From a virus (Duplodnaviria; Caudoviricetes): a stretch of 59,808 nt of DNA. Both the position numbers and the translations under genes were made by a program. Below are positions 24,176-55,308 of the stretch, one piece after another. The stretch lies in the IMG/VR virus record IMGVR_UViG_3300033150_001833, positions 1-59,808 of that record; one strand, written 5' to 3'. Positions within the stretch are counted from its first letter, which is position 1; each line of letters opens with the position of its first letter. The notes beneath the pieces were generated by a model. That model was not told the origin of the DNA and did no database searches. It worked only from the letters and a program-made list of their open reading frames with translations.

Positions 24176-24235
24176 TCCTATCGTTTTTAGTTGGTCTGCA
24201 CTACTTTTTGGCGTTAGAGTCCAACGTTGTTGCCA
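24176..24235 (-). other. attC-like site (degenerate)
   Basis: GGCAAC AACGTTGGACTCTAACGCC AAAAAG TAGTGCAGACCAACTAAAAAC GATAGGA; same family as 24986 and 27766. Confidence 0.6.
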
Positions 24236-24449
24236 CAAACCATTCACGCCACACTTCAGTTATCTGCCAGAACATAGCTCTAATATTTGTAAATATCATG
24301 CGAGCATTCTTACGTTTGTAATGTTTTACAGCCGACATAAAAAAAGCCAGCGCACCATTGATGTGAAACCACACCAGGAAGTATTTAGCTTTAGGATTTC
24401 TCGACATTTTCCTAAACACAAGATAATATGTTTTAGTGATAAGATTCAT
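24201..24449 (-). CDS. Cassette gene, hypothetical
   Basis: ATG lies within the upstream core site; C-terminus reads into the attC. Confidence 0.5.
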   Translation of the reverse strand: MNLITKTYYLVFRKMSRNPKAKYFLVWFHINGALAFFMSAVKHYKRKNARMIFTNIRAMFWQITEVWREWFVATTLDSNAKK

Positions 24450-24541
24450 AATGTCTGAACTCACCAGTGGGCAGGAAACTCAAAATGTCGATTTACTCCG
24501 ATAGCCGACCCTGCCCATCTGCGTGCAGCGCCTGGTTATCA
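24446..24541 (-). other. attC site
   Basis: GATAAC CAGGC GCT[G]CAC[G]CAG[A]TGGGCAGG ... CCTGCCCACTGGTGAGT TCAGAC ATTATGA; three extrahelical bases. Confidence 0.85.
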
Positions 24542-24740
24542 AAATATCGTTTTTCAGTTTTCTATTTTGCAATTTTCAATGTCTGATATGGTCCTATGCC
24601 AATGTCGGAATCATAATACATCGGATAAATATACCATCCGTCTGATTCTCGGCATATCCCGCCATATTTCAGATGCGTATACCATCCAGATTCTTCTTTT
24701 CTCCATTCAAAATGACTGCCACTCATAATCTAAATTCCTT

Positions 24741-24798
24741 TTATAACCACATTAGTTTAGCAGGCGGCTATTCGCTCCGCTGGAACGCTTTGTTATGC
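24741..24798 (-). other. attC site
   Basis: GCATAAC AAAGC GTT[C]CAGCGG[A]GCG..CGCCTGCTAAAC..GTTATAA. Confidence 0.8.
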
Positions 24799-24985
24799 TA
24801 TCCTCTCAATCGCCTTAGCTAACGGCAACCATTTCGATACACGTCCCCCACATTTGGCGCATATATATCCGTGATCGTCTGTATACACTTTTCCATATTT
24901 TTTACATGCGGGGTTGTCCAGGTTGCAATACCTGCCTCCAGGCTTCTCAAATTTTATTTTGTTTTTTTTTCATTTTTTCCTCAAA

Positions 24986-25046
24986 GCATAAAACTTAGCT
25001 GACCTGCGGCTGCTTTTTACCATCAGAGTCGAGCAACTGGTTGTGC
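24986..25046 (-). other. attC site
   Basis: GCACAAC CAGTT GCT[C]GAC[T]CTG[A]TGGT AAAAAGCA GCCGCAGGTCAGC TAAGT TTTATGC. Confidence 0.8.
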
Positions 25047-25255
25047 TGTATATGTATATTATCTTCCAAATCCAAGCCACATTTCTTGCAGGAATTGTCA
25101 ATTCCATTATTTACATAGTAATGGGCAAAGGTTTTTTCGAGCAAGCTTATCCTTTTCTCGTTTTTTGTTGGTGTGTCAGGATAGCAAACATGACAAGAAA
25201 CTTTATATTCTGTCCCGCATTTTTTACATATTACACCCATAATTACTCCTTTCAC
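24995..25255 (-). CDS. Cassette gene, Cys-rich hypothetical
   Basis: C-terminus NQLLDSDGKKQPQVS is translated attC. Confidence 0.6.
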   Translation of the reverse strand: MKGVIMGVICKKCGTEYKVSCHVCYPDTPTKNEKRISLLEKTFAHYYVNNGIDNSCKKCGLDLEDNIHIQHNQLLDSDGKKQPQVS

Positions 25256-25274
25256 TCGTCGGCCGCCACATTGT

Positions 25275-25478
25275 TTATAAAAGTTTAAGCTCGTTCGGCC
25301 ATACTAGGCATTTATGATTCCCCATATTATATCTTACATCTGGCTTTATATCAGTGTAAATAATATATGCAGCTACATGCTTACTATCTATTGATGATTT
25401 TATTATTTTTTCTACTGTAGCATTACCCAAATAATCATGGACAACCCTATCACCAATTTTAAACTTTTCCGCTTTTTT
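25275..25478 (-). CDS. Hypothetical SH3/KOW-like small protein
   Basis: FKIGDRVVH..LG...V motif. Confidence 0.5.
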   Translation of the reverse strand, partial: KKAEKFKIGDRVVHDYLGNATVEKIIKSSIDSKHVAAYIIYTDIKPDVRYNMGNHKCLVWPNELKLL

Positions 25479-25722
25479 CATTTTTTTCTTTAAGTTTAGC
25501 AATTACAAGGCCAACGGCATAATCATTAACCCATCTGGGGTCATCCATGAATGCCATGACTGTCGCTCGGTCACGATTAAGATCATACAAAATCCCCTCG
25601 GCAGGTTGTTTTATAAACTCCTCTATGTCTGCCTCTTTTGGTCCGTCCAATGTCATAAAAACAATTTTACCTTCTTTTTCTTTTTGAAGGACCAACTCTT
25701 TTAATTTCTCTTTATCAGTCAT
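25459..25722 (-). CDS. Hypothetical protein
   Basis: ORF in array. Confidence 0.6.
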   Translation of the reverse strand: MTDKEKLKELVLQKEKEGKIVFMTLDGPKEADIEEFIKQPAEGILYDLNRDRATVMAFMDDPRWVNDYAVGLVIAKLKEKNEKSGKV

Positions 25723-25893
25723 GGTTCATCCCCTTATCGCTATCAATTTAACTGAAGAAATATCCTTCACTTTACATGTACAGCTTTGTTGTTTTAAAGA
25801 ATAAGCGTCTTCCGCTTGGTTCCATGCCCATGATTGGGCAGGTGGAATCTTAGCTCTTTTACAATATTTCATTTTCCATCGCCATTTGTACAT

Positions 25894-25952
25894 ATTTACC
25901 CCTCTAATCAGCCGCCGTGCTCTTTTCGGTCAGCTGCATTGCTTGATTATGC
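25894..25952 (-). other. attC site (core degenerate)
   Basis: GCATAAT CAAGC AAT[G]CAGCTG[A]CCG..CGGCGGCTGATT AGAGG GGTAAAT. Confidence 0.75.
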
Positions 25953-26134
25953 TTTTTAGCAGAAAACCTATGAATATAAGTATCGCCTCCAGTATATGTT
26001 ATCCTACAATCTTCTCTTCGATCTCTGTGCATTGCCCTATGACGTGTAATTCCAAGATAGTGAAAACTTTTTTTACAGGTATGGCAATAACAATTTTTAA
26101 ACCTCGTCACTTTCATTTTACCCTTTTGAAGCAT
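25904..26134 (-). CDS. Cassette gene, C2H2-like zinc finger
   Basis: CHTCKKSFHYLGITRHRAMH. Confidence 0.6.
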   Translation of the reverse strand: MLQKGKMKVTRFKNCYCHTCKKSFHYLGITRHRAMHRDRREDCRITYTGGDTYIHRFSAKKHNQAMQLTEKSTAAD

Positions 26135-26185
26135 AACAGATTAAGTCAGCAACGTTTTTCAATCTGCCAGGACAACTGATTATCT
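26131..26185 (-). other. attC-like site (degenerate)
   Basis: AGATAAT CAGTT...CGTTGCTGACT TAATCT GTTATGC. Confidence 0.6.
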
Positions 26186-26421
26186 GTCTCATCTTTCACC
26201 AATTCTGGTTTACCGATAAAAAGTGCTGCACTTCTAAAAGCATCAAAACATTGATCATGTACGCCGTCTTCGTCATTGGCCCAAATAATGATTCCTTTCA
26301 ATAATGCTTCAATATGGTTTTTAGCTTCTTGTTCCACATTGTAGTGTGGACAGTTAGGGTGATGTTGTGTAAGTAACAACACATTATCACGTGCCCAATT
26401 TTTACATTCGCAATCTATCAT
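26146..26421 (-). CDS. Cassette gene, hypothetical
   Basis: SD AAGGAG after core site. Confidence 0.6.
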   Translation of the reverse strand: MIDCECKNWARDNVLLLTQHHPNCPHYNVEQEAKNHIEALLKGIIIWANDEDGVHDQCFDAFRSAALFIGKPELVKDETDNQLSWQIEKRC

Positions 26422-26434
26422 ATTGCTCCTTCCC

Positions 26435-26556
26435 CGATAACGATTGAATTAAGCGATACGCCCACAAATCGGGGATACCAAATCATAGCCAAGCGGATCG
26501 GGCTTCATGTCTTTGCAGCACGGATTTCTCACATCTGCTTTAACGGGTTGGTATCG
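26435..26556 (-). other. Long attC-like site (degenerate)
   Basis: Right arm CGTATCGCTTAATTCAATCGTTATCG; left CGATAC..GTTAAAGCAGATG. Confidence 0.5.
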
Positions 26557-26685
26557 CCAACCCGTTTGTGTTTGATACCAATCACACATTCTTGTGTTCC
26601 CATAACAGCGCATGCAAAACTTAGAGTCTATGCCATTGCATATTGGACAACCCTTTTTCCTTTTGTCTTCTGATAATGATTTCAT
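26449..26685 (-). CDS. Cassette gene, Cys-rich
   Basis: CPIC..CMRC; reads through the attC. Confidence 0.5.
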   Translation of the reverse strand: MKSLSEDKRKKGCPICNGIDSKFCMRCYGNTRMCDWYQTQTGWRYQPVKADVRNPCCKDMKPDPLGYDLVSPICGRIA

Positions 26686-26908
26686 TTTTTACCTGTTTGT
26701 TTTTTTTGTTATACTGTTTTTATATTTTTAAAACTTCTCGCATAAGGCCATGTTTTTCACATATTTCTCGGCACCTTAAAAAATGAGTGGTTAAGTCCAT
26801 CATTTCTGTAGCACGGCCGCCTGTAATTTCTTTTGATGTTTTTATTAACATCGCAAGCGTTTCAACAAAATCCTTATTATGCACTTTTTTGCCAGCTATT
26901 AATGCTCC

Positions 26909-26955
26909 TTCCAACGGCTCTTTATAATCCCGTCCACTGAACACAGGGGTTATCC
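26909..26955 (-). other. attC-like site with internal deletion
   Basis: GGATAAC CCCTG TGTTCAGTGGACGGG..AGAGCC GTTGGAA. Confidence 0.6.
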
Positions 26956-27131
26956 GATGTTCTTTGTTGCCAAAGACGGTTAGCTTCCATGCCGTCTTTT
27001 GATATTGGCCCTTGCGCGCCGCATGAAACACATTTTATTGCTTTCCACGGTTTGCCTTTTGTTGTTGATAAAAGTGTTAGTTTCAGATTCTCGGTTTCTC
27101 CGCAAAAAGGACATTTTACCAAATGATCCAC
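26922..27131 (-). CDS. Lar-family restriction alleviation-like protein
   Basis: CPFCG...CVSCGAQGP...A...WQQR. Confidence 0.7.
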   Translation of the reverse strand: MDHLVKCPFCGETENLKLTLLSTTKGKPWKAIKCVSCGAQGPISKDGMEANRLWQQRTSDNPCVQWTGL

Positions 27132-27148
27132 TTTTTATTTCCTCCAGG

Positions 27149-27207
27149 ATATAATATACTTAGATTAGCCGCCCATTCTTTGAGTCAGATAGATTTACTT
27201 GTTAGTT
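27149..27207 (-). other. attC site (degenerate)
   Basis: AACTAAC AAGTA AAT[C]TATCTG[A]CTCA..TGGGCGGCTAATC..ATTATAT. Confidence 0.65.
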
Positions 27208-27342
27208 TTTTTGCTTCTTTATAATCATGCCGTACGTGCCTTTTTGATCTTCTATATATTTTCTTTGGCGATGAGAATAATCCCCGTAAATCATTTTTCT
27301 TATTTTTTTTGATTTCTTGCCATTCATCTTTGTCTCCTTAAA

Positions 27343-27393
27343 AACTAACGTTTAATTAAGCAGCTTTTGTCTGCCTGAATTTCTTGGTTATGT
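27343..27393 (-). other. attC site (short)
   Basis: ACATAAC CAAGA AATT[C]AGGCAG[A]C AAAA GCTGCTTAATT AAAC GTTAGTT. Confidence 0.75.
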
Positions 27394-27395
27394 GT

Positions 27396-27469
27396 CGCCC
27401 CCACTCTGGAATCAAACCAGTAGGCTGAAGACTAGGACAGCCAGCCCGCCCATCAGGGATCAGGAGGGC
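27396..27469 (-). ncRNA. tRNA-like element as sole cargo of a mini-cassette
   Basis: GCCCTC..GGGGGC acceptor-like stem, CTGG-TTTGATT-CCAG T-arm, GGCTG..CAGCC central arm. Confidence 0.45.
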
Positions 27470-27529
27470 ACATAACACTAAACTGAGCCGCCGAAGTTTT
27501 TATTGATCGCCCCCAGTGACTTGTTGGAA
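27470..27529 (-). other. attC site
   Basis: TTCCAAC AAGTC ACTGGGGGCGATC..CGGCGGCTCAGT TTAGT GTTATGT. Confidence 0.7.
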
Positions 27530-27754
27530 GGAAATTTTTGGTATATTAATTTCCTTTATAGTTTTTTTTGCTAAATCGATTTCATAAAGATGACCAACAT
27601 AACTTTCTGGCTCAAAATTAGAAACCGACTGTTCTCTTTCCCAAAGTAAAATTGCTGCCTGTTTTGGCGATGAAACAACTTTTTGAGTTACTGGCATATT
27701 TTTTATGCCAGTAAAATAATGAGACATTAAAATAATAAATAATAGTATTTTCAT
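27500..27754 (-). CDS. Cassette gene with N-terminal hydrophobic segment
   Basis: Bounded by 15-bp inverted cassette ends. Confidence 0.6.
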   Translation of the reverse strand: MKILLFIILMSHYFTGIKNMPVTQKVVSSPKQAAILLWEREQSVSNFEPESYVGHLYEIDLAKKTIKEINIPKISFQQVTGGDQ

Positions 27755-27765
27755 AACAAATTTCC

Positions 27766-27826
27766 TTCCAACAATTTAGCTGACCGATGCTACTTTTTGG
27801 TGTCAGAATCTAGCAGCTTGTTATCT
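27766..27826 (-). other. attC site
   Basis: AGATAAC AAGCT GCTAGATTCTGACACC AAAAAG TAGCATCGGTCAGC TAAATT GTTGGAA. Confidence 0.75.
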
Positions 27827-27981
27827 GTCTTCGGTATTTTTACTGTGGGCATAGGAATTCGTGGACATTTAATAGCTGGTTCCTTGTAATTACATCCCCA
27901 TCGAACACAATGAGAAGAGCCAAAAATGTCAGCAGTGTCAAAATATAGCCGATGCCCAAAAATTTTACATAATATATTCAC
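27790..27981 (-). CDS. Cassette gene, DUF1660-like (LCKIFGH...CxR)
   Basis: N-terminal LCKIFGHR motif typical of small prophage proteins. Confidence 0.5.
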   Translation of the reverse strand: MNILCKIFGHRLYFDTADIFGSSHCVRWGCNYKEPAIKCPRIPMPTVKIPKTDNKLLDSDTKK

Positions 27982-27989
27982 AACAAACT

Positions 27990-28043
27990 CCTTTATGTAT
28001 GAATCAGCGTTGAGTGTTCATCCGCCGGACCGGCTTGTTAAGT
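27990..28043 (-). other. attC-like site (degenerate)
   Basis: ACTTAAC AAGCC GGT[C]CGGCGG[A]TG..CAACGCTGATT. Confidence 0.6.
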
Positions 28044-28282
28044 GTTTTATAATTATTAAGTAAAACTGTTGAACATTTTGTGCCACGTTGAACACTCGAT
28101 TGCACGGTAACACCCTCAACAGCTAAATCCCTATCTCGAATAGAGGCTAAAATATGCTCTAATGTCGCGGATATTATTAAGGTTCCGTCATTATGGACAA
28201 GTTCCGCATAGATGGTATTTGGTCTCAGCTGACCATGTTCGTTTCCATCCATTCTAATATTTTGTAAATGATATATTTCCAT
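28004..28282 (-). CDS. Hypothetical protein
   Basis: ORF in array. Confidence 0.6.
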   Translation of the reverse strand: MEIYHLQNIRMDGNEHGQLRPNTIYAELVHNDGTLIISATLEHILASIRDRDLAVEGVTVQSSVQRGTKCSTVLLNNYKTLNKPVRRMNTQR

Positions 28283-28604
28283 TTTTTTCTTCTTTCTTTG
28301 ATTCCGGTGCTATGATTTTAGAATAACGAATATAATTCTCATCAATATTCACTTCCACTATTATAAAACCTGGAATAGTAGTTTGAATTATTTTTTTTAT
28401 CATAGCAGTCTTATCAGTTGACTTTGATCCACTTATTGAGACTGTAATAGTTTTTTCCCAAATATCTTGATTGATAATCATAAATTTTGCTTCTATATAA
28501 TTCAATAGATCCTGAACATCTTTGTTTGGCATGTCCAATTTGGGATTTATTTCTTTTATGTATTCAAAAAAATCACGCCTGTCTTCTTCTGTTAAAAAAT
28601 TCAT
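28254..28604 (-). CDS. Hypothetical protein
   Basis: SD upstream. Confidence 0.6.
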   Translation of the reverse strand: MNFLTEEDRRDFFEYIKEINPKLDMPNKDVQDLLNYIEAKFMIINQDIWEKTITVSISGSKSTDKTAMIKKIIQTTIPGFIIVEVNIDENYIRYSKIIAPESKKEEKNGNISFTKY

Positions 28605-28626
28605 ATTTCCCCCTTTTCCGCTATCC

Positions 28627-28686
28627 CGACAACATGGAAATCAGCAATCTTCTATCTTTGGTTTTGGCAGATTTCCAACATTATCT
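28627..28686 (-). other. attC-like site (degenerate)
   Basis: AGATAAT..GGAAATCTGC...TTGCTGATTTCC AT GTTGTCG. Confidence 0.5.
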
Positions 28687-28919
28687 AATTCGGCGGCCAG
28701 CTTATGAAAATAAATTGCACACATATCACCGTAATCATCAACAGGACTGCCGTCCTCGTCAAGAATATTACTAAATTCTTCCGGGTTTTCGGAGTATCTC
28801 CTTGCCCATTCGTTAAAAATAATAGCCATTCTTTTGTGAGTAATGCTTGTTGTTGGTGGTGCCTTTGGCGCATCGGGCTTTACCGCGTTTGCTGGTCTTA
28901 CATTACTTGCTTTTTTCAT
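28641..28919 (-). CDS. Cassette gene, hypothetical
   Basis: GTTGGAGG core/SD then ATG. Confidence 0.6.
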   Translation of the reverse strand: MKKASNVRPANAVKPDAPKAPPTTSITHKRMAIIFNEWARRYSENPEEFSNILDEDGSPVDDYGDMCAIYFHKLAAELDNVGNLPKPKIEDC

Positions 28920-28937
28920 AGTGATTACCTCCAACGA

Positions 28938-29147
28938 TTATTTATTATTAGATTCCCAGTGAGTCACTTCAACATAAGCCTCGTCATGTGTATCAATATC
29001 CCACATAGGCTTTCCAATTACATCATTCATCCCTAAAAACTCCGCTTCAATTTCTTCTGTAGAAGAAACACTTCCAAACCGCCAATAATTTACACGGCAC
29101 CGTGTTTTTTGACCAACGCTGGGCAACTTTTCTTCAACTGAAATCAT
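28938..29147 (-). CDS. DUF551-like phage protein
   Basis: ISVEEKLP...VTHW signature. Confidence 0.65.
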   Translation of the reverse strand: MISVEEKLPSVGQKTRCRVNYWRFGSVSSTEEIEAEFLGMNDVIGKPMWDIDTHDEAYVEVTHWESNNK

Positions 29148-29177
29148 AATATATCCCTCCGATATTTACCTTTTTTG

Positions 29178-29387
29178 TTATATTTTATCCCAAAGCTCAT
29201 CAGGCAGTCATATATTATTGTCTTTTTTTTCAAAAGCGCTCCCAGCAGTAAAAACAAGCTCAATTTCCTGATCTTCAATAGACCTTAGAAAGGCTATAGT
29301 TTTATATCCTTCTTCTTGCGCTTCAATTTCTCCAGGTAAAATATTTCTATATCGTTCAATTAGATTATCTTTCATTTTTACTTTCAT
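29178..29387 (-). pseudogene. Hypothetical gene with in-frame TGA at 29208-29210
   Basis: 59 codons, TGA, then LPDELWDKI and a TAA that overlaps an attC left-end remnant. Confidence 0.5.
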
Positions 29388-29414
29388 ACTACCCTCTCTT
29401 CAGAATGTAACAGT

Positions 29415-29576
29415 TTAATCTCCTTAAGACGGCGCCCAGGTCTTTAACCTGGAACGGATAGATATCTTTTCGTTTCCACTTTTATTGCGCCGTAAAAGTT
29501 TACGTGTCATTATATCTTTCCGTCGTATGCTTTTTGGCGGCGCCACCTCACATACACGCCGGCTTAAGAAGACTAA
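29415..29576 (-). ncRNA. Putative structured four-way-junction RNA (non-coding cassette)
   Basis: 20-bp closing stem plus three internal arms. Confidence 0.5.
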
Positions 29577-29595
29577 CGTAGAGTTGGAGCTGTAA

Positions 29596-29628
29596 GCATA
29601 ACGAATCAGCTGAAACGGTTTGTTATAA
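29596..29628 (-). other. Collapsed attC
   Basis: TTATAAC AAACC GTTTCAGCTGATTC GTTATGC. Confidence 0.6.
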
Positions 29629-29817
29629 ACCCTCATAACGCCAAGGATTCTGTAAACAAATTTGCCACCGACCACCGTTTTTAATTATATTTAACGCTGC
29701 TTCTTTAGTTTTTGGATTGTGCTTCAATCCTTTAACACTATCAAATCTGTCCAATTTACAATTTATGCCCCTATTAGTATTTATTGGGCCAGAACAAAAT
29801 TTCTTACAAGGTATCAT
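29623..29817 (-). CDS. Cassette gene, hypothetical
   Basis: Flanked by GTTATAAACCC / GGGTTTATAAC. Confidence 0.6.
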   Translation of the reverse strand: MIPCKKFCSGPINTNRGINCKLDRFDSVKGLKHNPKTKEAALNIIKNGGRWQICLQNPWRYEGL

Positions 29818-29834
29818 AATAGCCCCCTTTGGGT

Positions 29835-29914
29835 TTATAACGTTAAACTGACTTGATCATTTGCAATTTCCGAATTATAATATGCTTGTTATGTGCAAAT
29901 GTAATTTGTTATGC
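29835..29914 (-). other. attC-like site
   Basis: GCATAAC...TCAAGTCAGT TTAAC GTTATAA. Confidence 0.55.
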
Positions 29915-30043
29915 GGTGTTGACCCTGGATCATATTTTTTATTCAACGTTTTCGTGCTGTAGGTAGCATTGACATTATAATGAATGCTCTTACCGATATT
30001 TTCATATCAGACCTTCACACTTCCAGCGATTTCAAAGAAAGCC

Positions 30044-30090
30044 GCATAACGTTTGCCTTCACCTGACCAGACCGAAAAACTTTGTTATCC
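30044..30090 (-). other. attC-like site (right arm clear)
   Basis: GGTCAGGTGAAGGCAAAC GTTATGC. Confidence 0.55.
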
Positions 30091-30111
30091 ACCTGTTAAT
30101 TTACTGCTGCA

Positions 30112-30522
30112 TCATATCCCCCTGTATAAATTAACAGAGTCTTCTAAGAACAATCGAACCAGTCGGTGTTTCGTCCCCTGCGGAAGAGTTGTCTTTATTG
30201 CGGAAAAAATTTTATTTGCATCTTCATTGTACAGGGTTTGTGCTTCTTCCAAAGTGTCCGTTTGTGGTAAGTCTGTGTTTATTTCAATCACTATCCCATT
30301 GATAGATTCCTCTTTTCTTATCGGGTCTGCTTTATGTACAATAATTGTATGGTTCATAATTCCTCCGTAAAATAACAATTTTACCTTTTCCCAGTCAGTA
30401 CACGTCTCAGTATCCTCATGCACATCTTTTTTGTGCAGTTCACACCATTTCCATTCACCCAACGGGTCGAGTTCGTGGTGTCTATCGCTGCAATGTTTAC
30501 AATTATTGCAAAACTCTTTCAT
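30112..30522 (-). CDS. Hypothetical protein (probably two fused ORFs; internal SD GGAGG-ATG at ~30357)
   Basis: Cys-rich N-terminal half, internal RBS. Confidence 0.5.
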   Translation of the reverse strand: MKEFCNNCKHCSDRHHELDPLGEWKWCELHKKDVHEDTETCTDWEKVKLLFYGGIMNHTIIVHKADPIRKEESINGIVIEINTDLPQTDTLEEAQTLYNEDANKIFSAIKTTLPQGTKHRLVRLFLEDSVNLYRGI

Positions 30523-30523
30523 G

Positions 30524-30566
30524 TCATAACCGCCCGCATCACAGGCTTATCCTATGTGTGTTGCTA
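30524..30566 (-). other. attC-like site
   Basis: TAGCAAC...GCCTGTGATGC GGGCG GTTATGA. Confidence 0.55.
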
Positions 30567-30749
30567 CTGCCTGATCTGTAATTTAAAATTTTGCGCCGGC
30601 ATCCTAAAAAGATTTTCAAACATACCTTGATTTTCAACATCTTTGGGCCATTTCTGAAAATATACCTGTCCTTTTTTGATCATATGTACATGAATAGCTA
30701 TGCTGTTTCTCTCAATTACCATTCCTGGTTTTATATTAATCATTTTCAT
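30564..30749 (-). CDS. Cassette gene, hypothetical
   Basis: Lies between attC sites. Confidence 0.55.
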   Translation of the reverse strand: MKMINIKPGMVIERNSIAIHVHMIKKGQVYFQKWPKDVENQGMFENLFRMPAQNFKLQIRQ

Positions 30750-31132
30750 TGTAGGCCCCTAACGTCTGGACTCACGGGCGGTGGTCTTTTGCCATCCCCT
30801 GGCTTGTTATGTATTTTGCGTAGCATTAATTCAAGCCTCGATAACGCATTCCATGCTAAGTGCGCTTGATGCAATAACCCAGAATCTTTGTCTTGATCCT
30901 CATGGCGTTCAGCGAGAAGATGACGCCAGAGTGCGTCTGTGTATCGAATAAAGCCATTCTCTACGCTTTGCCACCCGCCACGAGAGTATTTAATTGCTCC
31001 AAAAGTCCCTACTTTGGCAACCTCCGTTAAGGCTAAAGAAAAATCAGAAAGAACACCTGCAAGGACTTTACCAGCATCCAGCTTTGCGCCTTGTTCGTGT
31101 TGATTTAAACCATTTGGATCTTGTTCATGCAT
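30746..31132 (-). CDS. dATP/dGTP diphosphohydrolase-like (DUF5664) protein
   Basis: GAKLDAGK...VAKVGTFGAIKYSRGGW...RYTDALWRHL...DSGLLHQAHLAWNAL. Confidence 0.85.
   Translation of the reverse strand: MHEQDPNGLNQHEQGAKLDAGKVLAGVLSDFSLALTEVAKVGTFGAIKYSRGGWQSVENGFIRYTDALWRHLLAERHEDQDKDSGLLHQAHLAWNALSRLELMLRKIHNKPGDGKRPPPVSPDVRGLQ
30757..30812 (-). other. attC site (left arm partly deleted)
   Basis: ACATAAC AAGCC..GATGGC AAAAG ACCACCGCCCGTGAGT CCAGAC GTTAGGG. Confidence 0.7.
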
Positions 31133-31146
31133 ATTGTTCCTTTATG

Positions 31147-31207
31147 GTATAACGGTTAAGCTGACTTGCCGCTGCTTTTTGTCGTCAAGTCCAGCGGCTT
31201 GTTAGCT
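31147..31207 (-). other. attC site (intact)
   Basis: AGCTAAC AAGCC GCT[G]GACTTG[A]CG..CGGCAAGTCAGC TTAACC GTTATAC. Confidence 0.9.
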
Positions 31208-31359
31208 GCTTTAACCAATGTTTGCATATCTTGCTCAATATCTCTTAAGGCAAATACAATTGCAATCCAACCGCAAACAAGCCTTAAAGCCGGGCCATCA
31301 AACTCAAACTTCCATCCGCCATATTTCCCGACACAAAAATAAAAAGTAAACCCATTCAT
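31156..31359 (-). CDS. Cassette gene, hypothetical
   Basis: Cassette ends GTTAGCTG/CAGCTAAC. Confidence 0.6.
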   Translation of the reverse strand: MNGFTFYFCVGKYGGWKFEFDGPALRLVCGWIAIVFALRDIEQDMQTLVKAANKPLDLTTKSSGKSA

Positions 31360-31376
31360 TTTTTATCCTTTCAGCC

Positions 31377-31512
31377 AGCTAACGTCCTAATAACCTGCAT
31401 GTAGGGCTTGCACACCCCTTAAAAGAGCACTCCCACCCATCTTCCCCTGGCAATTATCGACTCTTACCGACAAGCCGACCCTACGCGTCAGAGTTTGTTT
31501 GATTGATTATAC
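31377..31512 (-). other. Long attC site (136 bp)
   Basis: AAC[A]AAC[T]CTG[A]CGCGTAGGG ... CCCTACATGCAGGTTATT AGGAC GTTAGCT. Confidence 0.8.
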
Positions 31513-31732
31513 GTTTCTGCTTCATCAACCCCCGGATCATCTTCTTGACATCATCCATACAGTCTATGTTGAACACACAGCGAGACGATGGCCAAAAGCA
31601 GTATTGACGCCATGCTCCATACCACTTGATTTGCCCAAGCACGAGACCGGAAGACTTCGATAAAATATTCCATATTTCGGTTTTGCCGGTTTCTCCAACT
31701 TTATCAAATTCCATGTAACGGCTTTCAATCAT
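31481..31732 (-). CDS. Cassette gene, conserved small phage protein
   Basis: LGQIKWYGAWRQYCF...FNxDCM motif; SD AAGGAGG. Confidence 0.65.
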   Translation of the reverse strand: MIESRYMEFDKVGETGKTEIWNILSKSSGLVLGQIKWYGAWRQYCFWPSSRCVFNIDCMDDVKKMIRGLMKQKRIINQTNSDA

Positions 31733-31747
31733 GTTCCCTCCTTAGAA

Positions 31748-31836
31748 ATATAACGTCCTAATAACTTGCATGTAGGGCTTGCACACCCCTTAAAAGAGCC
31801 CTCCCACCCGTCATCCCCTGGCAATTATCGACTCTT
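31748..31836 (-). other. Second copy of long attC (right arm + loop)
   Basis: Near-identical to 31380-31465. Confidence 0.8.
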
Positions 31837-31990
31837 CCTCAACCTGAACGGTCACGGAAATCGTCAGAGTGTGTGTTTGTGTGCACACTGGACACTTCAC
31901 ATGTTTAATTACTTCCAAACCGAAGCAGGGCTTAATTTCGACTTCAAAACCCTGCATGCATCTGCCGCATGGGATGATTATTTTATACAC
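31811..31990 (-). CDS. 59-aa zinc-ribbon protein (not in ORF track)
   Basis: SD GGAGG, GTG start; MYKIIIPCGRC...CPVC; ends inside the attC loop. Confidence 0.6.
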   Translation of the reverse strand: MYKIIIPCGRCMQGFEVEIKPCFGLEVIKHVKCPVCTQTHTLTISVTVQVEEESIIARG

Positions 31991-32051
31991 CTACGCCTCC
32001 ATTTGTTCACGAATTTTGGGATGAGCAACTTTTAAGTGTCAAGTTAAGTAC

Positions 32052-32216
32052 CTAATTACCCTCTATATTGTTATACAAACATATTGCCAAACAAAACCAA
32101 AGTACAACAACAAACCAATCACAAACAGCACTTAAATCTTTTTCAAGCAAATTTATAACAAGATTAGTAAGAGTTATAAATACACATAAAATAATTGCAG
32201 ATATATATATATTCAT
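32052..32216 (-). CDS. 54-aa two-TM membrane protein (not in ORF track)
   Basis: MNIYISAIILCVFITL...WFVVVLWFCLAICLY. Confidence 0.5.
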   Translation of the reverse strand: MNIYISAIILCVFITLTNLVINLLEKDLSAVCDWFVVVLWFCLAICLYNNIEGN

Positions 32217-32288
32217 ATTTTTAAACTTCTCTGTAAAAAGTTGTGCAGTAGCTGCCTTAAACTCCGTTGTAAGGATTTATTAGCATTC

Positions 32289-32912
32289 CTACCTAAAATC
32301 TTTTGCTTTGATTTTGGCAATGACCCGTTCTCCTCTTCGATTAAACAATTCAACTTTTGGACGCATAACAAGCCCTTCAGGTAACATTTTTCGTAACTTC
32401 GATTCGTACCCACCTTTGACCATTGCAACACCTTCAAGCAACGTGCCCTCACCAATAACGGGTACTGTCTTAATCATAAGCTTCTCACCGATATCCTTAA
32501 CGTTGTGATGTTCAAGCCACATACCATTAATATTCACATCGAAAAGGATAAAACTAACGCCGTTTGAAATGTAATTGCCACCACCTTTTTGGATTTTGGC
32601 TCCATAACCTTCACCATACAAACATAATGGAGGCAACTCATTAGTTATGAAGATTTCAGGATAAAAAAGTGCAGCAAGTTTATCAAGGAGGAATTTTGGA
32701 ATATCTGCCCGGTCTGTTTTCCCGGCGAAAGTAACGTGTTCACCGTTCCACTTCACACGGATATTCGTGCCATCTACTTTCTCGGTAAATATCCATATAT
32801 TATTCTTGAGATAGTCGAACTCAGGCTTTGCAAATTGACCTTCCAGTAATGTTTTATGCTTCGTCGCAGGATCACGTAAATATACTGTTTGAATTTTATG
32901 ATACTCTTTCAT
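32289..32912 (-). CDS. RNA ligase family nucleotidyltransferase
   Basis: YHKIQT, motif I EKVDGTN, LYGE, FILFDV, EGLV, IAKIK. Confidence 0.85.
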   Translation of the reverse strand: MKEYHKIQTVYLRDPATKHKTLLEGQFAKPEFDYLKNNIWIFTEKVDGTNIRVKWNGEHVTFAGKTDRADIPKFLLDKLAALFYPEIFITNELPPLCLYGEGYGAKIQKGGGNYISNGVSFILFDVNINGMWLEHHNVKDIGEKLMIKTVPVIGEGTLLEGVAMVKGGYESKLRKMLPEGLVMRPKVELFNRRGERVIAKIKAKDFR

Positions 32913-32941
32913 TTTGTAATTTCTCCATTTGTCAACCACAA

Positions 32942-33412
32942 TTATTTATACAGTATCTCGGTCATTTCTTCATCTGCTGATTTTTTTATCTTTTCCACTC
33001 TTTCCTTTAACAACATCTTGGTTTTTTGTTGTTCTTTTTCATAAATTTCAGCAATTATTTCTTCCTCTGCTAATTTTTCTATCTTTTCCACTCTCGCCTT
33101 TAACATTCCTTCTAATAAAATTAGATAATTGATAGAATAGCCGATCTTTTTGTCAATCATTGCGTCTGTTAACTTCTCAGGCGAACGATCTGACATTTCA
33201 ACTAAATCTAACACTGAAACAATATGTTCTACCCACATACCGACCAGGGCTTTTTCTGGTGTCGTGTCTAATATTCTCGCCGCAATGTTAAAATTATGGT
33301 ATCTATCACAACCCATCGCATATTCTTTAGCCTTTTCTGATAATACAGACCGGATTGATTCTATTCGGTCATCCACTATTTCATCAAACTGTGTATCGTA
33401 TTTCATAAACAC
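32942..33412 (-). CDS. DUF1599/Nmad1-like nucleotide-modification-associated protein
   Basis: KAKEYA..DRYHNF...KIGYSINYLILLE; duplicated C-terminal helix. Confidence 0.65.
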   Translation of the reverse strand: MFMKYDTQFDEIVDDRIESIRSVLSEKAKEYAMGCDRYHNFNIAARILDTTPEKALVGMWVEHIVSVLDLVEMSDRSPEKLTDAMIDKKIGYSINYLILLEGMLKARVEKIEKLAEEEIIAEIYEKEQQKTKMLLKERVEKIKKSADEEMTEILYK

Positions 33413-33413
33413 C

Positions 33414-33489
33414 TCCTAACGCAAAGTTCACTTATCGGAAAGCCGACAAGGATAGTTTTTTGCCGTCAGAGTCGAGCGACTGATTATGC
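33414..33489 (-). other. attC site with mismatched arms
   Basis: Left GCTCGACTCTGACGGC; right ATAAGTGAACTTTGC GTTAGGA. Confidence 0.7.
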
Positions 33490-33668
33490 TGTTCCAATAC
33501 CTTGATTCGCTTCTGTAGCAACATGTTTTCAGCTTCGAGATTGTTTATTTTAGCTTGTTGTTCATGCCGCTCATTTATTTCCATCTGTCGAGAAATCCAT
33601 TCACATTCTTTAGGATTAAAACAATCTCTACCAATTACACCTCCACAACTGTTACATATCATAATCAT
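33432..33668 (-). CDS. Cassette gene, Zn-ribbon + coiled coil
   Basis: SD AAGGAG; CNSCGG..DCF...C. Confidence 0.6.
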   Translation of the reverse strand: MIMICNSCGGVIGRDCFNPKECEWISRQMEINERHEQQAKINNLEAENMLLQKRIKVLEQHNQSLDSDGKKLSLSAFR

Positions 33669-33687
33669 TTCTCCTTTCCCCAAAAAG

Positions 33688-33742
33688 ACATAATATCTAA
33701 GCTGAACCACCGGTATCAGTCGGCTCAAGCGGCTGGTTAGAT
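33688..33742 (-). other. attC site
   Basis: ATCTAAC CAGCC GCT[T]GAGCCG[A]CTG ATAC CGGTGGTTCAGC TTAGAT ATTATGT. Confidence 0.85.
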
Positions 33743-33937
33743 TTCATCCCCATAATCCTGCATATCACGTTCCCGTTCGGCTAATATGCATTGACTCACA
33801 TGATAGGAATTATGAAGCTCCGCAAGTAGCCAATCGGGGGTATATTTAGGATTCACCCTCTTAAGAATTCTTTCAATACTATCTACAACAGATTTTGCCT
33901 GAGTCCGATGATACTTTCTTGCTGACTTTGCTCCCAA
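33737..33937 (-). CDS. Cassette gene, hypothetical
   Basis: SD AAGGAGG; stop is the TAA of the attC left end. Confidence 0.65.
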   Translation of the reverse strand: MGAKSARKYHRTQAKSVVDSIERILKRVNPKYTPDWLLAELHNSYHVSQCILAERERDMQDYGDEI

Positions 33938-33954
33938 AATAACCTCCTTTAAAA

Positions 33955-34014
33955 ATCTAACGTCTTAGCTGACCTGCGGCGACTTTTGGCGTCCGCTCAA
34001 GCGGCTGGTTATAT
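33955..34014 (-). other. attC site (chimeric arms)
   Basis: ATATAAC CAGCC GCTTGAGCGGACGCC AAAAGT CGCCGCAGGTCAGC TAAGAC GTTAGAT. Confidence 0.85.
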
Positions 34015-34545
34015 AGGTAAGTTCACTGTTGATTTAACTTCATTACCCCAAACATCCCAGCCATCTCGCACTTGCCGTGCAAAGATATCGGCTCTATTCT
34101 CAGCTAAAGATTTTATCATCTCATAAAATTTATTTGGTTTTTGGGAATGCTTAATATTTGGTGCTGAAAAAGCTAAAGGGATTAACGGTCGTTTTGGCCA
34201 TAAATCAGGTTTTTCCTTATATCCAACCAATATGAATTCAACATTCCATCTAAAACCAAACAATGGCATCCCTGCAGATTTACCATAAGTTTTTTTCCAT
34301 ACACCTGTAACAAGGTGACTAAACCCCCATGTCTCTAATACCTCTTTAGCATCAAAGAGATGCTTTTGGGTAGCCCACAAGAATAACCAACAATTGTCAT
34401 CTGCAATACTATCTATAGGCAATGATTTGATTTGTTCTATGCTCATAGTTTTGTAATCCATTGTCACCTGTTTTGGCCGTACCTTGCGTGTAAGCTTCTT
34501 TACTGGCCAGGGAGGATCAACAACAATTAATCCATATTTTTTCAT
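34009..34545 (-). CDS. MT-A70 family adenine methyltransferase (cassette gene)
   Basis: IVVDPPW, YKTMS, LFLWAT, HSQKP, DIFAR, GWDVWGNE. Confidence 0.9.
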   Translation of the reverse strand: MKKYGLIVVDPPWPVKKLTRKVRPKQVTMDYKTMSIEQIKSLPIDSIADDNCWLFLWATQKHLFDAKEVLETWGFSHLVTGVWKKTYGKSAGMPLFGFRWNVEFILVGYKEKPDLWPKRPLIPLAFSAPNIKHSQKPNKFYEMIKSLAENRADIFARQVRDGWDVWGNEVKSTVNLPI

Positions 34546-34567
34546 AAGGTCTCCTATACGAAATGCC

Positions 34568-34625
34568 ATATAACATTTAGTTTAACAGGCAAGCTTTTCC
34601 GCTCTGCTGCAATGACTGGTTATAT
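34568..34625 (-). other. attC site
   Basis: ATATAAC CAGTC ATT[G]CAGCAG[A]GCG..TGCCTGTTAAAC TAAAT GTTATAT. Confidence 0.85.
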
Positions 34626-34684
34626 TTTTCCACTTCAAAATAGCTCTGCAATAGTTGCACACTTTATCCCCTCTACGTTTAGAT

Positions 34685-34743
34685 GAATAATATAAAGCTA
34701 ACTTGTGCTGTCTTTTGGCGTCAAGTTGAGCGACTTGTTAGCA
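34685..34743 (-). other. attC site
   Basis: TGCTAAC AAGTC GCT[C]AACTTG[A]CGCC AAAAGAC AGCACAAGTTAGC TTTAT ATTATTC. Confidence 0.85.
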
Positions 34744-34955
34744 ATTTTTGTGAGATCATCTAACACAGATAAATCATTATTTAGAAAGCGCGTGATTATG
34801 GTGGCAGGATCAATAGTACAACTATGTACTAATTTATCGCTATTGCAATAAGGACAACTTGTCTTATGATCAAAATACGAAGCATGCCATTTTTTACAAG
34901 AACGGCAGCAATAGACAAAGGTTACGTGCATACTATAGTTATATTTCAATTTCAT
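34698..34955 (-). CDS. Cassette gene, zinc ribbon
   Basis: CRSC..CPYC; ends NKSLNLTPKDSTS (translated attC). Confidence 0.65.
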   Translation of the reverse strand: MKLKYNYSMHVTFVYCCRSCKKWHASYFDHKTSCPYCNSDKLVHSCTIDPATIITRFLNNDLSVLDDLTKIANKSLNLTPKDSTS

Positions 34956-35019
34956 CCTAATAATCCTTTATGGTTATATTAATGATTTGGAAAACTTGAA
35001 AACTTCCACAACACCTCCT

Positions 35020-35135
35020 CCAATAAGGTTTGCACACCCCTCAGAAAGGCACTCCCACCTGTCTTCCCCTGGCAATTACTGGACCCTACCGACAGCCCAA
35101 CCCTATACAGTATTCTTTGATTTTAATTATAATTT
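35020..35135 (-). other. Degenerate third copy of long attC
   Basis: Similar to 31404-31484. Confidence 0.6.
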
Positions 35136-41261: not shown

Positions 41262-41502
41262 CCTTTTCTTTGCTCCCCCAACATTTGCTTGGAGCATAGT
41301 TATACAAAAAGTGTACGTAAGCCGGAATATTTAACATATTTTCCTTATCAGCATATCCAACAGCATTGCTTAAATCGTTCTCAAAAACCGCTGTAAGAAA
41401 GTTACCGGCCGGGACACCCTTCTCAATATAACGTACCAAAGAAGGCCGCATTCTTTTCGGAATTTCGTAGACAACACCAGTATAAACAAATTTAAACTTC
41501 AT
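41203..41502 (-). CDS. Conserved hypothetical phage protein
   Basis: PAGNFLTAVFENDL..A...AD...AP..CWGS. Confidence 0.7.
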   Translation of the reverse strand: MKFKFVYTGVVYEIPKRMRPSLVRYIEKGVPAGNFLTAVFENDLSNAVGYADKENMLNIPAYVHFLYNYAPSKCWGSKEKVKKWVSEHRKALSGAAQRV

Positions 41503-42463
41503 CTTCTACCCCCTTTTGCCTTTTCCCCCACCACATTGATTGGTTCACCCTGCGCTGCAACATCTTAGCAGTTGGATGAATGTAAAAGCGTTGAATTGTT
41601 GAGGGTGTATCCCCCAACAGGAACGCAATATCCATAATACTCATACCACCCTCATAGTGCAGCCATGTCGCTACATAATGTCTGAAGGCATGAGGCCCAC
41701 GACCGTCGGCGCCGCGTTTAAGTCCAAGATCAATCAGCATAATATCAACTAGCGCCTTAATCGCTCTAACAGACGGAAATAAAACTATATCCTTTACAGT
41801 AGCAGGAAATAGTTTATATCTTATTGTCATTGTTCTCATTCTGATATATTCTGATAATATATCCTTGGTCCTATCAGAAAAAAAGACCGAACGAGGTTCA
41901 GTCTTTGAGTCACTAATAAATACAGTATTTTCATCGAGGTTGATATCGTTTAATCGAATGCGACTTATTTCTTTACACCTTGCGCCGGTATCAATCAAGA
42001 GGTTCACGATTACTTGATTTCTAATCCAGTTCTGAGCTTTTGGAAACGTATAGTTCCTGCATGCTTCAATTTCTTCATCAGTAAACCATCGTTTTGCAGC
42101 CCTGATTTTTGCCGCTTTCTTATCAGCGTACTGAATTCGATACCGATACTTACTTTCAAAATTCAAAGATGCTCTGAAAAATATCCTCAGAATGGTCAGA
42201 TATAGTTGAATTGTCTTACCTGAACATCCGGTATCTTTTAAATGCTTAACATAATGTTCAACAAGATAATCTATTTCAACACCGTAAGATTCAACATGAT
42301 TGCAATAATCCGCGAATCTTTGAAGGGCTTTCCGATATGACATCCTTGTGGCAGGTGCCAAATGTTTACGCGTTTTCAAAAAACCCTCCATTTTTTTGTG
42401 GTGCGCGTACCATTTCACACTGCTCCACCTCCTATTTTTACTACAGTATCGGGGTCCGGGCAA
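41492..42463 (-). CDS. Tyrosine recombinase (non-IntI)
   Basis: SAM-like N-terminus, TGARCKE, K, HAFRH, LLGD, FY. Confidence 0.85.
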   Translation of the reverse strand: MPGPRYCSKNRRWSSVKWYAHHKKMEGFLKTRKHLAPATRMSYRKALQRFADYCNHVESYGVEIDYLVEHYVKHLKDTGCSGKTIQLYLTILRIFFRASLNFESKYRYRIQYADKKAAKIRAAKRWFTDEEIEACRNYTFPKAQNWIRNQVIVNLLIDTGARCKEISRIRLNDINLDENTVFISDSKTEPRSVFFSDRTKDILSEYIRMRTMTIRYKLFPATVKDIVLFPSVRAIKALVDIMLIDLGLKRGADGRGPHAFRHYVATWLHYEGGMSIMDIAFLLGDTPSTIQRFYIHPTAKMLQRRVNQSMWWGKRQKGVEDEV

Positions 42464-54369: not shown

Positions 54370-55308
54370 ATGAAGGCGAAAAAATACTATCAGTACGATG
54401 AAAAAGGCAATGGAGCGCAAATCACAGACACGCAAACCATTGAAATTCTTAGACTTTACGAAAAAAAGATAAGAAACGCCAGTCCACTAAAACAAGCGGT
54501 CTTACAAGAAACTGCAATAAAATTAATGAGTTATAATAACATCGGGGAGGGAAAAATAGAAAACCTTTGGAACAAAATCGAACGGAATACTACAGTTGAT
54601 AAGTGGCGCAACAGCGAAAAAGATAATCATATCACGGAGTTGTGGGATGATTATACTGCTGAGCAGCGGTTTACACTGGGGTATTGCGACTATCGCGATA
54701 TTGTGCAGTATATATGTAGTAGATTGACAAATGCGGAATGCCAAATATTTGCGCAGTATCACGTTGCGGGAAAAAAACAAGATGTTGTTGCTAAAAAAAT
54801 GGGGGTATCACAACAAACGATATCCAATCATATCAGGAGGTTGAACGCCAAATTACATAGAATGAAAATTAAAGAGCTGTACAGGATAGATTATGTTGCG
54901 CCTGTCAATCGTGATAAGAAAATGCCCCAATATCGTGATGCTAAACTAGTTGATGCTGCCCCCGTTCAGCGTGAACAGGGACCATGGCGGGGGAAGGTGT
55001 GTTATATATATAGTATGCCAGTCAGCCAAAAGAAAAAGTATGAAAACAGACAGGTCAAATATGTTGCTCCAAAAAAAGTCCATAACATGGAGCAACTCCC
55101 AGACAATTTTGTGCCGACCGAATATTTTGCGCCAACACGCCCAAAGTCGGAATATGATTGTATTGACATCACTCCAGTTGTCTACGGCAAACGTGGCGTT
55201 AGGTATGTTGTGAGAAAAAGATCGATATCGTTTCAGGGTGATTTGAATAACAGATATGGCGCGTGTTACAATTACGGCAAAATGAGTCGATTCTACCAGA
55301 CACCATAA
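54370..55308 (+). CDS. Sigma-70 region-4-like HTH protein
   Basis: LTNAECQIF...KQDVVAKKMGVSQQTISNHIRR. Confidence 0.7.
   Translation: MKAKKYYQYDEKGNGAQITDTQTIEILRLYEKKIRNASPLKQAVLQETAIKLMSYNNIGEGKIENLWNKIERNTTVDKWRNSEKDNHITELWDDYTAEQRFTLGYCDYRDIVQYICSRLTNAECQIFAQYHVAGKKQDVVAKKMGVSQQTISNHIRRLNAKLHRMKIKELYRIDYVAPVNRDKKMPQYRDAKLVDAAPVQREQGPWRGKVCYIYSMPVSQKKKYENRQVKYVAPKKVHNMEQLPDNFVPTEYFAPTRPKSEYDCIDITPVVYGKRGVRYVVRKRSISFQGDLNNRYGACYNYGKMSRFYQTP

Follow-up and report, generated by a model that had tools for sequence, protein, structure and literature searches.

The window analyzed here is the complete IMG/VR record IMGVR_UViG_3300033150_001833, a tailed-phage (Caudoviricetes) genome of 59,808 bases with an estimated completeness of 78%, in which the phage genes include those for the tape measure, tail proteins, the large terminase, primase/polymerase, helicases, a clamp and ParB. 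Between positions 24180 and 35140 lies what is probably an integron-type gene-cassette array, oriented in such a way that the ORFs and the attC top strand are found on the minus strand and the attC bottom strand is the plus strand. The region (24.2–35.1 kb) consists of a row of small minus-strand ORFs with short imperfect palindromes between them, the plus-strand reading of which is ...TAAC...GTTA.... Among the cassette cargo are an MT-A70 methyltransferase, an RNA ligase, the N-domain of a dATP/dGTP diphosphohydrolase, a Lar-like restriction alleviation protein and DUF1660; for 49 of the 56 ORFs scanned there was no match in Pfam, and a search of the window against Rfam returned 0 matches. 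With 18 modelled sites in one uncultured tailed-phage record, the array is very large for a phage.

The palindromes were modelled as a family of recombination sites. A simple minimum-free-energy search for AAC...GTT hairpins did not separate the sites from background, and RNAalifold applied to a raw MAFFT alignment of the sites yielded no structure, which is why the first covariance model (R1), built on six sites, was given its structure by hand; the second model (R2) was rebuilt on 11 R1 matches. When R2 was run over the whole window, on both strands and with filters off, 28 matches were obtained at E≤10, the best 12 of which (E≤0.02) are all on the plus strand and inside 24446–34743, the next-best match having an E-value of 0.047 and lying outside the array, at 55308. 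Five or six weaker matches fall in the array, and further sites were read by eye. For the pairing analysis, 18 plus-strand sites were taken from 33 R2 matches at E≤10 (23.5–35.6 kb) and the other 15 rows were dropped; 17 of the kept sites have E≤0.56 and the remaining one, at 26131–26185 (E 7.3), had previously been spotted by eye. These 18 model-supported attC-like sites span 10.3 kb, and beyond them about 10 more attC-like sites can be recognized by eye. The R2 structure is paired in 80% of cells, compared with 24–58% when the partners are slid, and the alignment contains 13 double-sided changes, as many as in none of 500 shuffles, both figures being taken from a model-fitted alignment that is biased towards structure.

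In these alignments GCTGA stands opposite TCNAGC, with one extra base in the plus-strand 3' arm, and since the extra bases sit in that arm the plus strand is taken to be the attC bottom strand, in agreement with the location of the ORFs on the minus strand. The sites have the outer boxes of an attC (R'', RYYYAAC; R', GTTRRRY), an imperfect inner palindrome (L boxes), an unpaired spacer and an extrahelical base, they stand in a single orientation behind small promoterless ORFs, and their G|TT crossover is accompanied by R' and R'' that are complementary in the circular form and not in the integrated site. If the sites are counted as attC, the array is also a CALIN, that is, at least two clustered attC with no nearby intI. 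The R' triplet is AAC in 11 of the 18 sites according to the model alignment, the other seven carrying AAT, ATC or TAA, and R'' is GTT in 15 sites and GATT (GATTAT) in three. Read by position, AAT replaces AAC at R' in four sites (24450–24452, 27153–27155, 33692–33694 and 34689–34691), and GATTAT replaces GTTAT at R'' in four (25945–25950, 26178–26183, 33482–33487 and 31505–31510), as though one A-T pair had been added beside the crossover base. The site at 25902–25952 has a variant triplet on both sides, with pairing kept.

No integron integrase was found in the record, the best TIGR02249 scores being 41.9 and 35.4 bits where the cut-off is 265, and no attI or Pc was identified in it. These sub-cut-off scores fall on the sole tyrosine recombinase (41492–42463), situated 6 kb from the array, whose comparison with the PDB retrieves Xer proteins only (XerA/C/D). 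The array is therefore not a complete integron in the sense of an intI with an IntI-specific domain beside it, in a record that is itself estimated to be 78% complete. A homologue of the Xer-like recombinase occurs in one of five related virus records, 29 kb from that record's array, and a tyrosine recombinase (PF00589) in two of the five, never beside the array; the one record rated as complete lacks any.

The cassette at 27476–27771 carries the longest example of the pairing with which this report is concerned. Its ORF (27500–27754, minus strand, 84 aa) has no family match, and its stop codon is inside its own attC, located at 27469–27529 on the plus strand (bottom strand; R2 53.0 bits, E 1.1e-11); the attC of the upstream cassette occupies 27766–27826 (plus strand, R2 55.2 bits). 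The R'-side arm, at the start of the cassette (27758–27772), is adjoined by the R' triplet of the upstream site and has a purine-rich RBS inside, 3 nt before the ATG at 27754, and the R''-side arm (27523–27537) is its 15-bp perfect complement, encoding K-I-S-F-Q on the minus strand near the C-terminus of the ORF. Counting two bases inside the sites, the pair extends to 17 bp, and in this version it is the longest perfect inverted repeat within 23.5–35.6 kb.

Five more such pairs had been quoted along with this one in the sequence-only reading, and all six proved to be perfect and to lie where that reading had placed them, with lengths of 15, 11, 10, 9, 9 and 8 bp. An 11-bp pair joins 29622–29632, which holds the stop codon of the ORF at 29623–29817, to 29831–29841, where the RBS adjoins the arm, and a 10-bp pair joins 27201–27210 to 27340–27349, again with the RBS adjoining the R'-side arm. 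The two 9-bp pairs are 33736–33744 with 33953–33961, the former arm holding the stop codon of the ORF at 33737–33937, and 29908–29916 with 30042–30050, in a cassette without any ORF of at least 50 aa; the 8-bp pair consists of 31201–31208, inside the ORF at 31156–31359, and 31376–31383. In four of the six pairs the R''-side arm reaches into the final codons of the ORF or its stop codon. Inclusion of the RBS, as in the earlier description of the arms, applies to one pair of the six, that of 15 bp; the RBS adjoins the arm in three others. Relatives of the cassette proteins encoded at 27500–27754 and 29623–29817 were sought in viral contigs and none were found.

Further arms occur elsewhere in the array. 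At 25947–25954 an R''-side arm of 8 bp follows a G-A start (the GATTAT variant) and has its partner at 26129–26136. The R''-side arm of the MT-A70 methyltransferase cassette (34008–34014) pairs over 7 bp with 34568–34574; the ATG of this ORF (34009–34569) is inside the R' box (34566–34574) and the cassette has no RBS; any ribosome-binding sequence would have to be supplied by the upstream attC. Three mini-cassettes bounded by attC sites contain no ORF, namely 27387–27476 (90 nt), 34619–34691 (73 nt) and 29908–30050 (143 nt), and two of these three keep private arms of 8–9 bp, that of the 90-nt unit being 27387–27394 on the R'' side, paired over 8 bp with 27469–27476.

Several other elements of the region were recorded. 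A conserved element of about 110 nt, C-rich on the plus strand, is present in three copies (31384–31500, 31755–31880 and 35010–35115), flanked by an attC-like end on the left and by "GTCAGAGT...GATTAT" on the right; the copies (at about 31.4, 31.8 and 35.0 kb) were considered as hairpins and rejected as such (z +1.4), and they matched no Rfam family. A perfect 11-bp inverted repeat with a 23-nt loop (30093–30103 and 30127–30137) starts at a second GTT belonging to the site at 30050, within or just past the ORF at 30112–30522, and is either the remnant of a cassette, 41 nt long, or a terminator-like hairpin. At two junctions, 28930–28950 and 32930–32950, there is no attC between the ORFs and a common ...CAAC...ATTATTTAT... 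is found at the stop codon of the upstream gene; these may be fused cassettes that have lost a site.

The sequence-only reading held that the pairing is within a cassette rather than within an integrated attC, and proposed that the two be scored against shuffled controls. Site edges were taken from the model alignment, with one edge moved by one base, and complementarity was counted outward from the base after the G. Pairing of the R'' flank of one site with the R' flank of the next (n=17) gave the values 4, 1, 2, 8, 4, 9, 7, 14, 4, 10, 3, 4, 1, 5, 8, 6 and 4, with a mean of 5.53 and at least 7 in 6 of 17, compared with a mean of 3.11 for the within-site pairings (n=18; at least 7 in none of them). 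All other pairings (n=289) had a mean of 3.29 and a maximum of 8, with at least 7 in seven cases; within-cassette complementarity thus exceeds that of random pairings, which is the opposite of the outcome named in advance as speaking against the claim. Not one of 200000 permutations (0/200000) reached the observed next-site sum. When a one-base slip was permitted, the means became 6.65 (next-site), 3.83 (within-site) and 4.07 (other), again with 0/200000 permutations reaching the sum. Four of the 17 next-site pairs have candidate sites read by eye between them and score 4, 4, 3 and 1, as expected of non-cognates. A few non-cognate pairs do reach 8–9, because some ends share box families; the end sequences are partly drawn from these (GTTATGC..., GTTATGTG...). 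On the inward side, complementarity ends at the G/C boundary in 12 of 16 pairings tried, including five of the six quoted pairs.

A model-free scan for GTT...AAC-anchored inverted repeats of at least 9 bp found eight in the 11.2-kb array and eight in the other 48.6 kb, and shuffling of the array sequence (200 shuffles) gave a mean of 1.37 anchored repeats and a maximum of 5. Five of the eight in the array are at site edges, four of them model-defined and one (29908/30050) read by eye, and three lie away from modelled sites. Perfect inverted repeats of 10–11 nt that lack the anchor are common in the region (86 pairs within 1200 nt). The significance thus comes from the anchoring at site edges.

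Stem lengths could be compared in 15 cassettes with both ends defined, made up of 13 model-defined neighbours without a site between them and the two curated cassettes 29908/30050 and 31201/31383. The perfect lengths, with the G counted where applicable, are 5, 7, 3, 8, 10, 8, 15, 11, 5, 5, 9, 7, 4, 9 and 8, that is, at least 7 bp in ten cassettes, at least 8 bp in eight and at least 10 bp in three, with less than 7 bp in five; among these five short ones is the four-ORF unit at 25040–25908 (869 bp), with a match of about 3 bp. The classical baseline consists of one array in a Cellvibrio genome, reached via an unrelated pattern match and standing beside an IntI of 395.6 bits (cut-off 265); it is limited to one array because two other IntI-bearing contigs (L089 and L090) had no repeated attC family in a repeat search and a third (L091) was too short. 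Excluding the G, the Cellvibrio cassettes have 7, 8, 8, 6, 8, 8, 7, 7, 7 and 8 bp, which with the G included makes 7–9 bp in 10 of 10, and the within-site pairs of that array have a mean of 4.45. Stems here are therefore not longer on average (7.6 bp over the 15 cassettes vs 8.4 bp in the classical array), and since an array with a bona fide IntI shows 7–9 bp throughout, stems of 8–9 bp are normal. One or two pairs beyond the 7-bp box are ordinary according to this control, and the claim of an extension well beyond 7 bp is not supported as it was worded, just three of the 15 cassettes (10, 11 and 15 bp) exceeding the classical range. Keyword searches of open-access text found no description of stems beyond the 7-bp boxes. 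The observation itself is real and its main reading, as the footprint of cassettes recombining at G|TT, is correct but textbook, the arms travelling with the cassette and the integrated site being a hybrid; the extension is modest except in the three cassettes.

We consider it probable that this tailed phage carries an integron-type cassette array in which the ends of each cassette are the halves of its own circular hairpin base and in which extra pairs may stabilize weak sites. A cassette is a small promoterless gene with a folding attC, the bottom strand of which is cut where A meets C in the R' triplet, equivalent to top-strand G|TT. All that lies outward of the cut, on both the R' and the R'' side, moves with the cassette, and for this reason the cassette ends are the two halves of its own hairpin base in the circle, the site seen in the array being a hybrid with the R' tail of the neighbour. 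This agrees with the convention of Joss et al. 2009 (PMC2674596), where a cassette begins at the first T of R' and ends with the G of the R' that follows, its own attC being the one seen in the circular form, and with Loot et al. 2017 (PMC5371416), according to whom the array does not require pairing between R'' and the 4 variable bp of R'. In the circular form the R stem usually has 7–9 bp, as in the classical integron, and 10, 11 and 15 bp in three cassettes, where the extra pairs may have been retained since they hold together sites with a weak inner hairpin. A free circle could then fold and insert well, and the array hybrid would be expected to fold poorly, making the cassette harder to excise. 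The recombinase is absent from the record, and the simplest guess would be a host integrase acting in trans.

Folding calculations bear on the role assigned to the extra pairs. Each site was folded as DNA with 16-nt flanks for 12 pairs judged adjacent by eye, giving a mean energy of −8.95 kcal/mol in the circular form, −6.34 kcal/mol in the array form and −6.42 kcal/mol with foreign flanks (circular form vs array form and vs foreign flanks: Wilcoxon p=0.02 and 0.027, n=12). The site at 27476–27523, which taken alone barely folds in the array form (−1.9 kcal/mol, z +0.85), goes from −4.2 kcal/mol in the array form to −15.8 kcal/mol in the circular form. Private stems tend to be longer where the inner hairpin is weaker (Spearman 0.61, p=0.036, n=12, post hoc), which is suggestive only, given the small sample, the adjacency judged by eye and the post hoc test, of long stems compensating for weak inner hairpins.

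The same measurements have to be weighed against a neutral account, in which the cassette reading is right and the extension has no function, being an unselected remnant of the attC's longer parental palindrome or of a recent event, the arms of which no crossover separates and which decays. The lengths form a continuum of 3–15 bp over the 15 cassettes, the match has been lost in five of them, the mean is no higher than that of the classical array and the arms lie in varied sequence, with an RBS in one, stop codons in others and non-coding sequence in others, all of which would be expected of such remnants. What they would not be expected to show is a length that tracks the weakness of the inner hairpin, with big gains in folding energy exactly at the weakest inner hairpins, nor longest arms that are perfect despite a coding sequence on one side and an RBS on the other. 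We regard neutral remnants as a real possibility, though one that we rather doubt. A stronger form of the functional reading makes the private stems a tunable part of the site that rescues weak hairpins, the circle being a good substrate and the array hybrid a poor one, so that capture and retention are biased, with the extensions marking the original hairpin of gene capture and the recombinase being something other than a classical IntI; taken as a whole this combination seems unlikely to us. If true, private extensions would be a direct handle on how cassettes are born. The few long private stems, in their link to weak inner hairpins, point to a possible contribution to site function from pairing beyond the canonical 7-bp box.

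Further support comes from other virus records and from a metagenome. A pattern scan of other virus records gave 18 loci, five of them scoring at least 50 bits with R2, and several records have 3–11 sites. In related virus records at least 7 bp, excluding the G, was found in four of 22 next-site pairs (7, 9, 9 and 11), none of 28 within-site pairs and two of 140 others; many of the low next-site pairs probably have unmodelled sites between them. A public sequencing run labelled marine sediment metagenome (run X1; 0.08 of sampled words, as short contigs) contains parts of the array in diverged form. In one contig the match to the window runs up to 33961, the C of AAC in the site at 33955–34014 and a cassette boundary, and continues through 11 other letters to 27169, 6.8 kb away and inside the site at 27149–27207, of which the contig has a variant, with 83 letters on the shorter side and a depth of 5. 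A relative therefore has its cassettes in another order, broken where the cassette reading predicts. The exact end of the homology at this AAC, the base at which the R'-side arm also stops, supports the earlier claim of real mobility. Two more joints in this run (34733 to 27817 and 33487 to 34695, with sides of 36 and 31 letters) are inside site arms and not at G|TT. A further joint, 28296 to 35129, was set aside as a likely repeat artefact (side 20, TT..TT, depth 673).

These two joints inside conserved site arms are what might be expected if no integron-type recombinase were involved and homologous recombination at conserved hairpins between the genes shuffled the small genes of the phage. 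The same account would sit well with the lack of an IntI in the record, with tyrosine recombinases found in just two of five related virus records and never beside the array, and with the near absence of the site family from bacterial genomes: the attC pattern had 64 matches in 185,579 species genomes (596 Gb), below chance by the search's own estimate, and only three of the 64 loci score with the model. These three are a 3.9-kb contig binned as an archaeon (L035), a contig of a Desulfobacterales MAG (L064) and a contig of a Pedobacter MAG with two sites (L075), and may be prophages or mis-binned phage DNA. Exchange within a repeat would not, however, create private complementarity that starts exactly at GTT/AAC, the sites are built like an attC with its R box, spacer, L box and bulged base, the best-supported joint is at AAC, and the same pattern is found in a classical integron. 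Homologous exchange of this kind is accordingly held to be improbable.

Even less can be said for a role at the RNA level, in which the 5' end of the cassette transcript would pair with its 3' end and mask the RBS as a translational control element. The 15-bp pair, with the RBS inside one arm and the partner 220 nt downstream in the same transcript, would suit such an element, but the other quoted arms end before the RBS or belong to a cassette without an ORF, ORF-less mini-cassettes also have arms (27387/27476), and the pattern is anchored on the recombination triplet and not on the RBS, which makes translational control very improbable. Chance matches in AT-rich DNA, for which the 86 unanchored repeats and the three of eight anchored in-array matches off modelled sites might be cited, are refuted by the controls: no permutation attained the observed sum, eight anchored repeats stand against 1.37 expected and at most 5 in 200 shuffles, and a 17-bp perfect repeat falls exactly at two site edges.

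The cassette array proposed here may be compared with three known systems. The mobile promoter-stem-loop cassettes of T4-type phages, which the account of shuffling by homologous recombination resembles, are considered to move by homologous exchange between promoter hairpins. They resemble the present array in having small accessory genes in a plastic phage region with repeated hairpins between them, and differ from it in that the repeats here are of attC architecture, with a boundary that is sharp at G|TT.

With classical integrons the array shares RYYYAAC...GTTRRRY-type ends, an imperfect inner palindrome with a bulged base, a single orientation behind small promoterless ORFs, and R boxes that match each other within the cassette but not in the site once integrated, as in all ten Cellvibrio cassettes (7–9 bp). 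It differs in that no IntI, attI or Pc was identified in this record, in its sites being short (about 47–62 nt) save a few long ones, in its variant triplets (7 of 18 at R' and 3 of 18 at R''), in the three cassettes with stems of 10–15 bp, and in the occurrence of its site family mostly in virus records. That the family is common in virus records and almost absent from bacterial species genomes, without an integrase in cis, bears on the question of which enzyme moves phage cassettes. Self-pairing cassette ends are the classic proof of where integron recombination cuts, and the presence of the self-pairing rule here indicates that this block of phage accessory genes is truly an array of cassettes, one that site-specific recombination has shuffled.

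A further parallel is provided by the phage CALINs of Qi et al. 2023 (PMC9892861), who screened 10,705 NCBI phage genomes and report 17 CALINs with at least two attC each, and whose tested phage sites recombined with attI1 at G|TTRRRY in five of six cases. As described there, attC arrays without IntI occur in phages, including virulent ones, with methyltransferase cargo, and the array described here is alike in both respects (MT-A70 at 34009–34569), differing in its at least 18 modelled sites in one uncultured record, compared with the criterion of at least two sites used in that study. Complementarity within the cassette is not among the analyses seen in its abstract and in sections 2.1 and 3.4. 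Both the footprint rule and phage CALINs are thus already published, and the stems of 10, 11 and 15 bp alone are clearly beyond the classical baseline.
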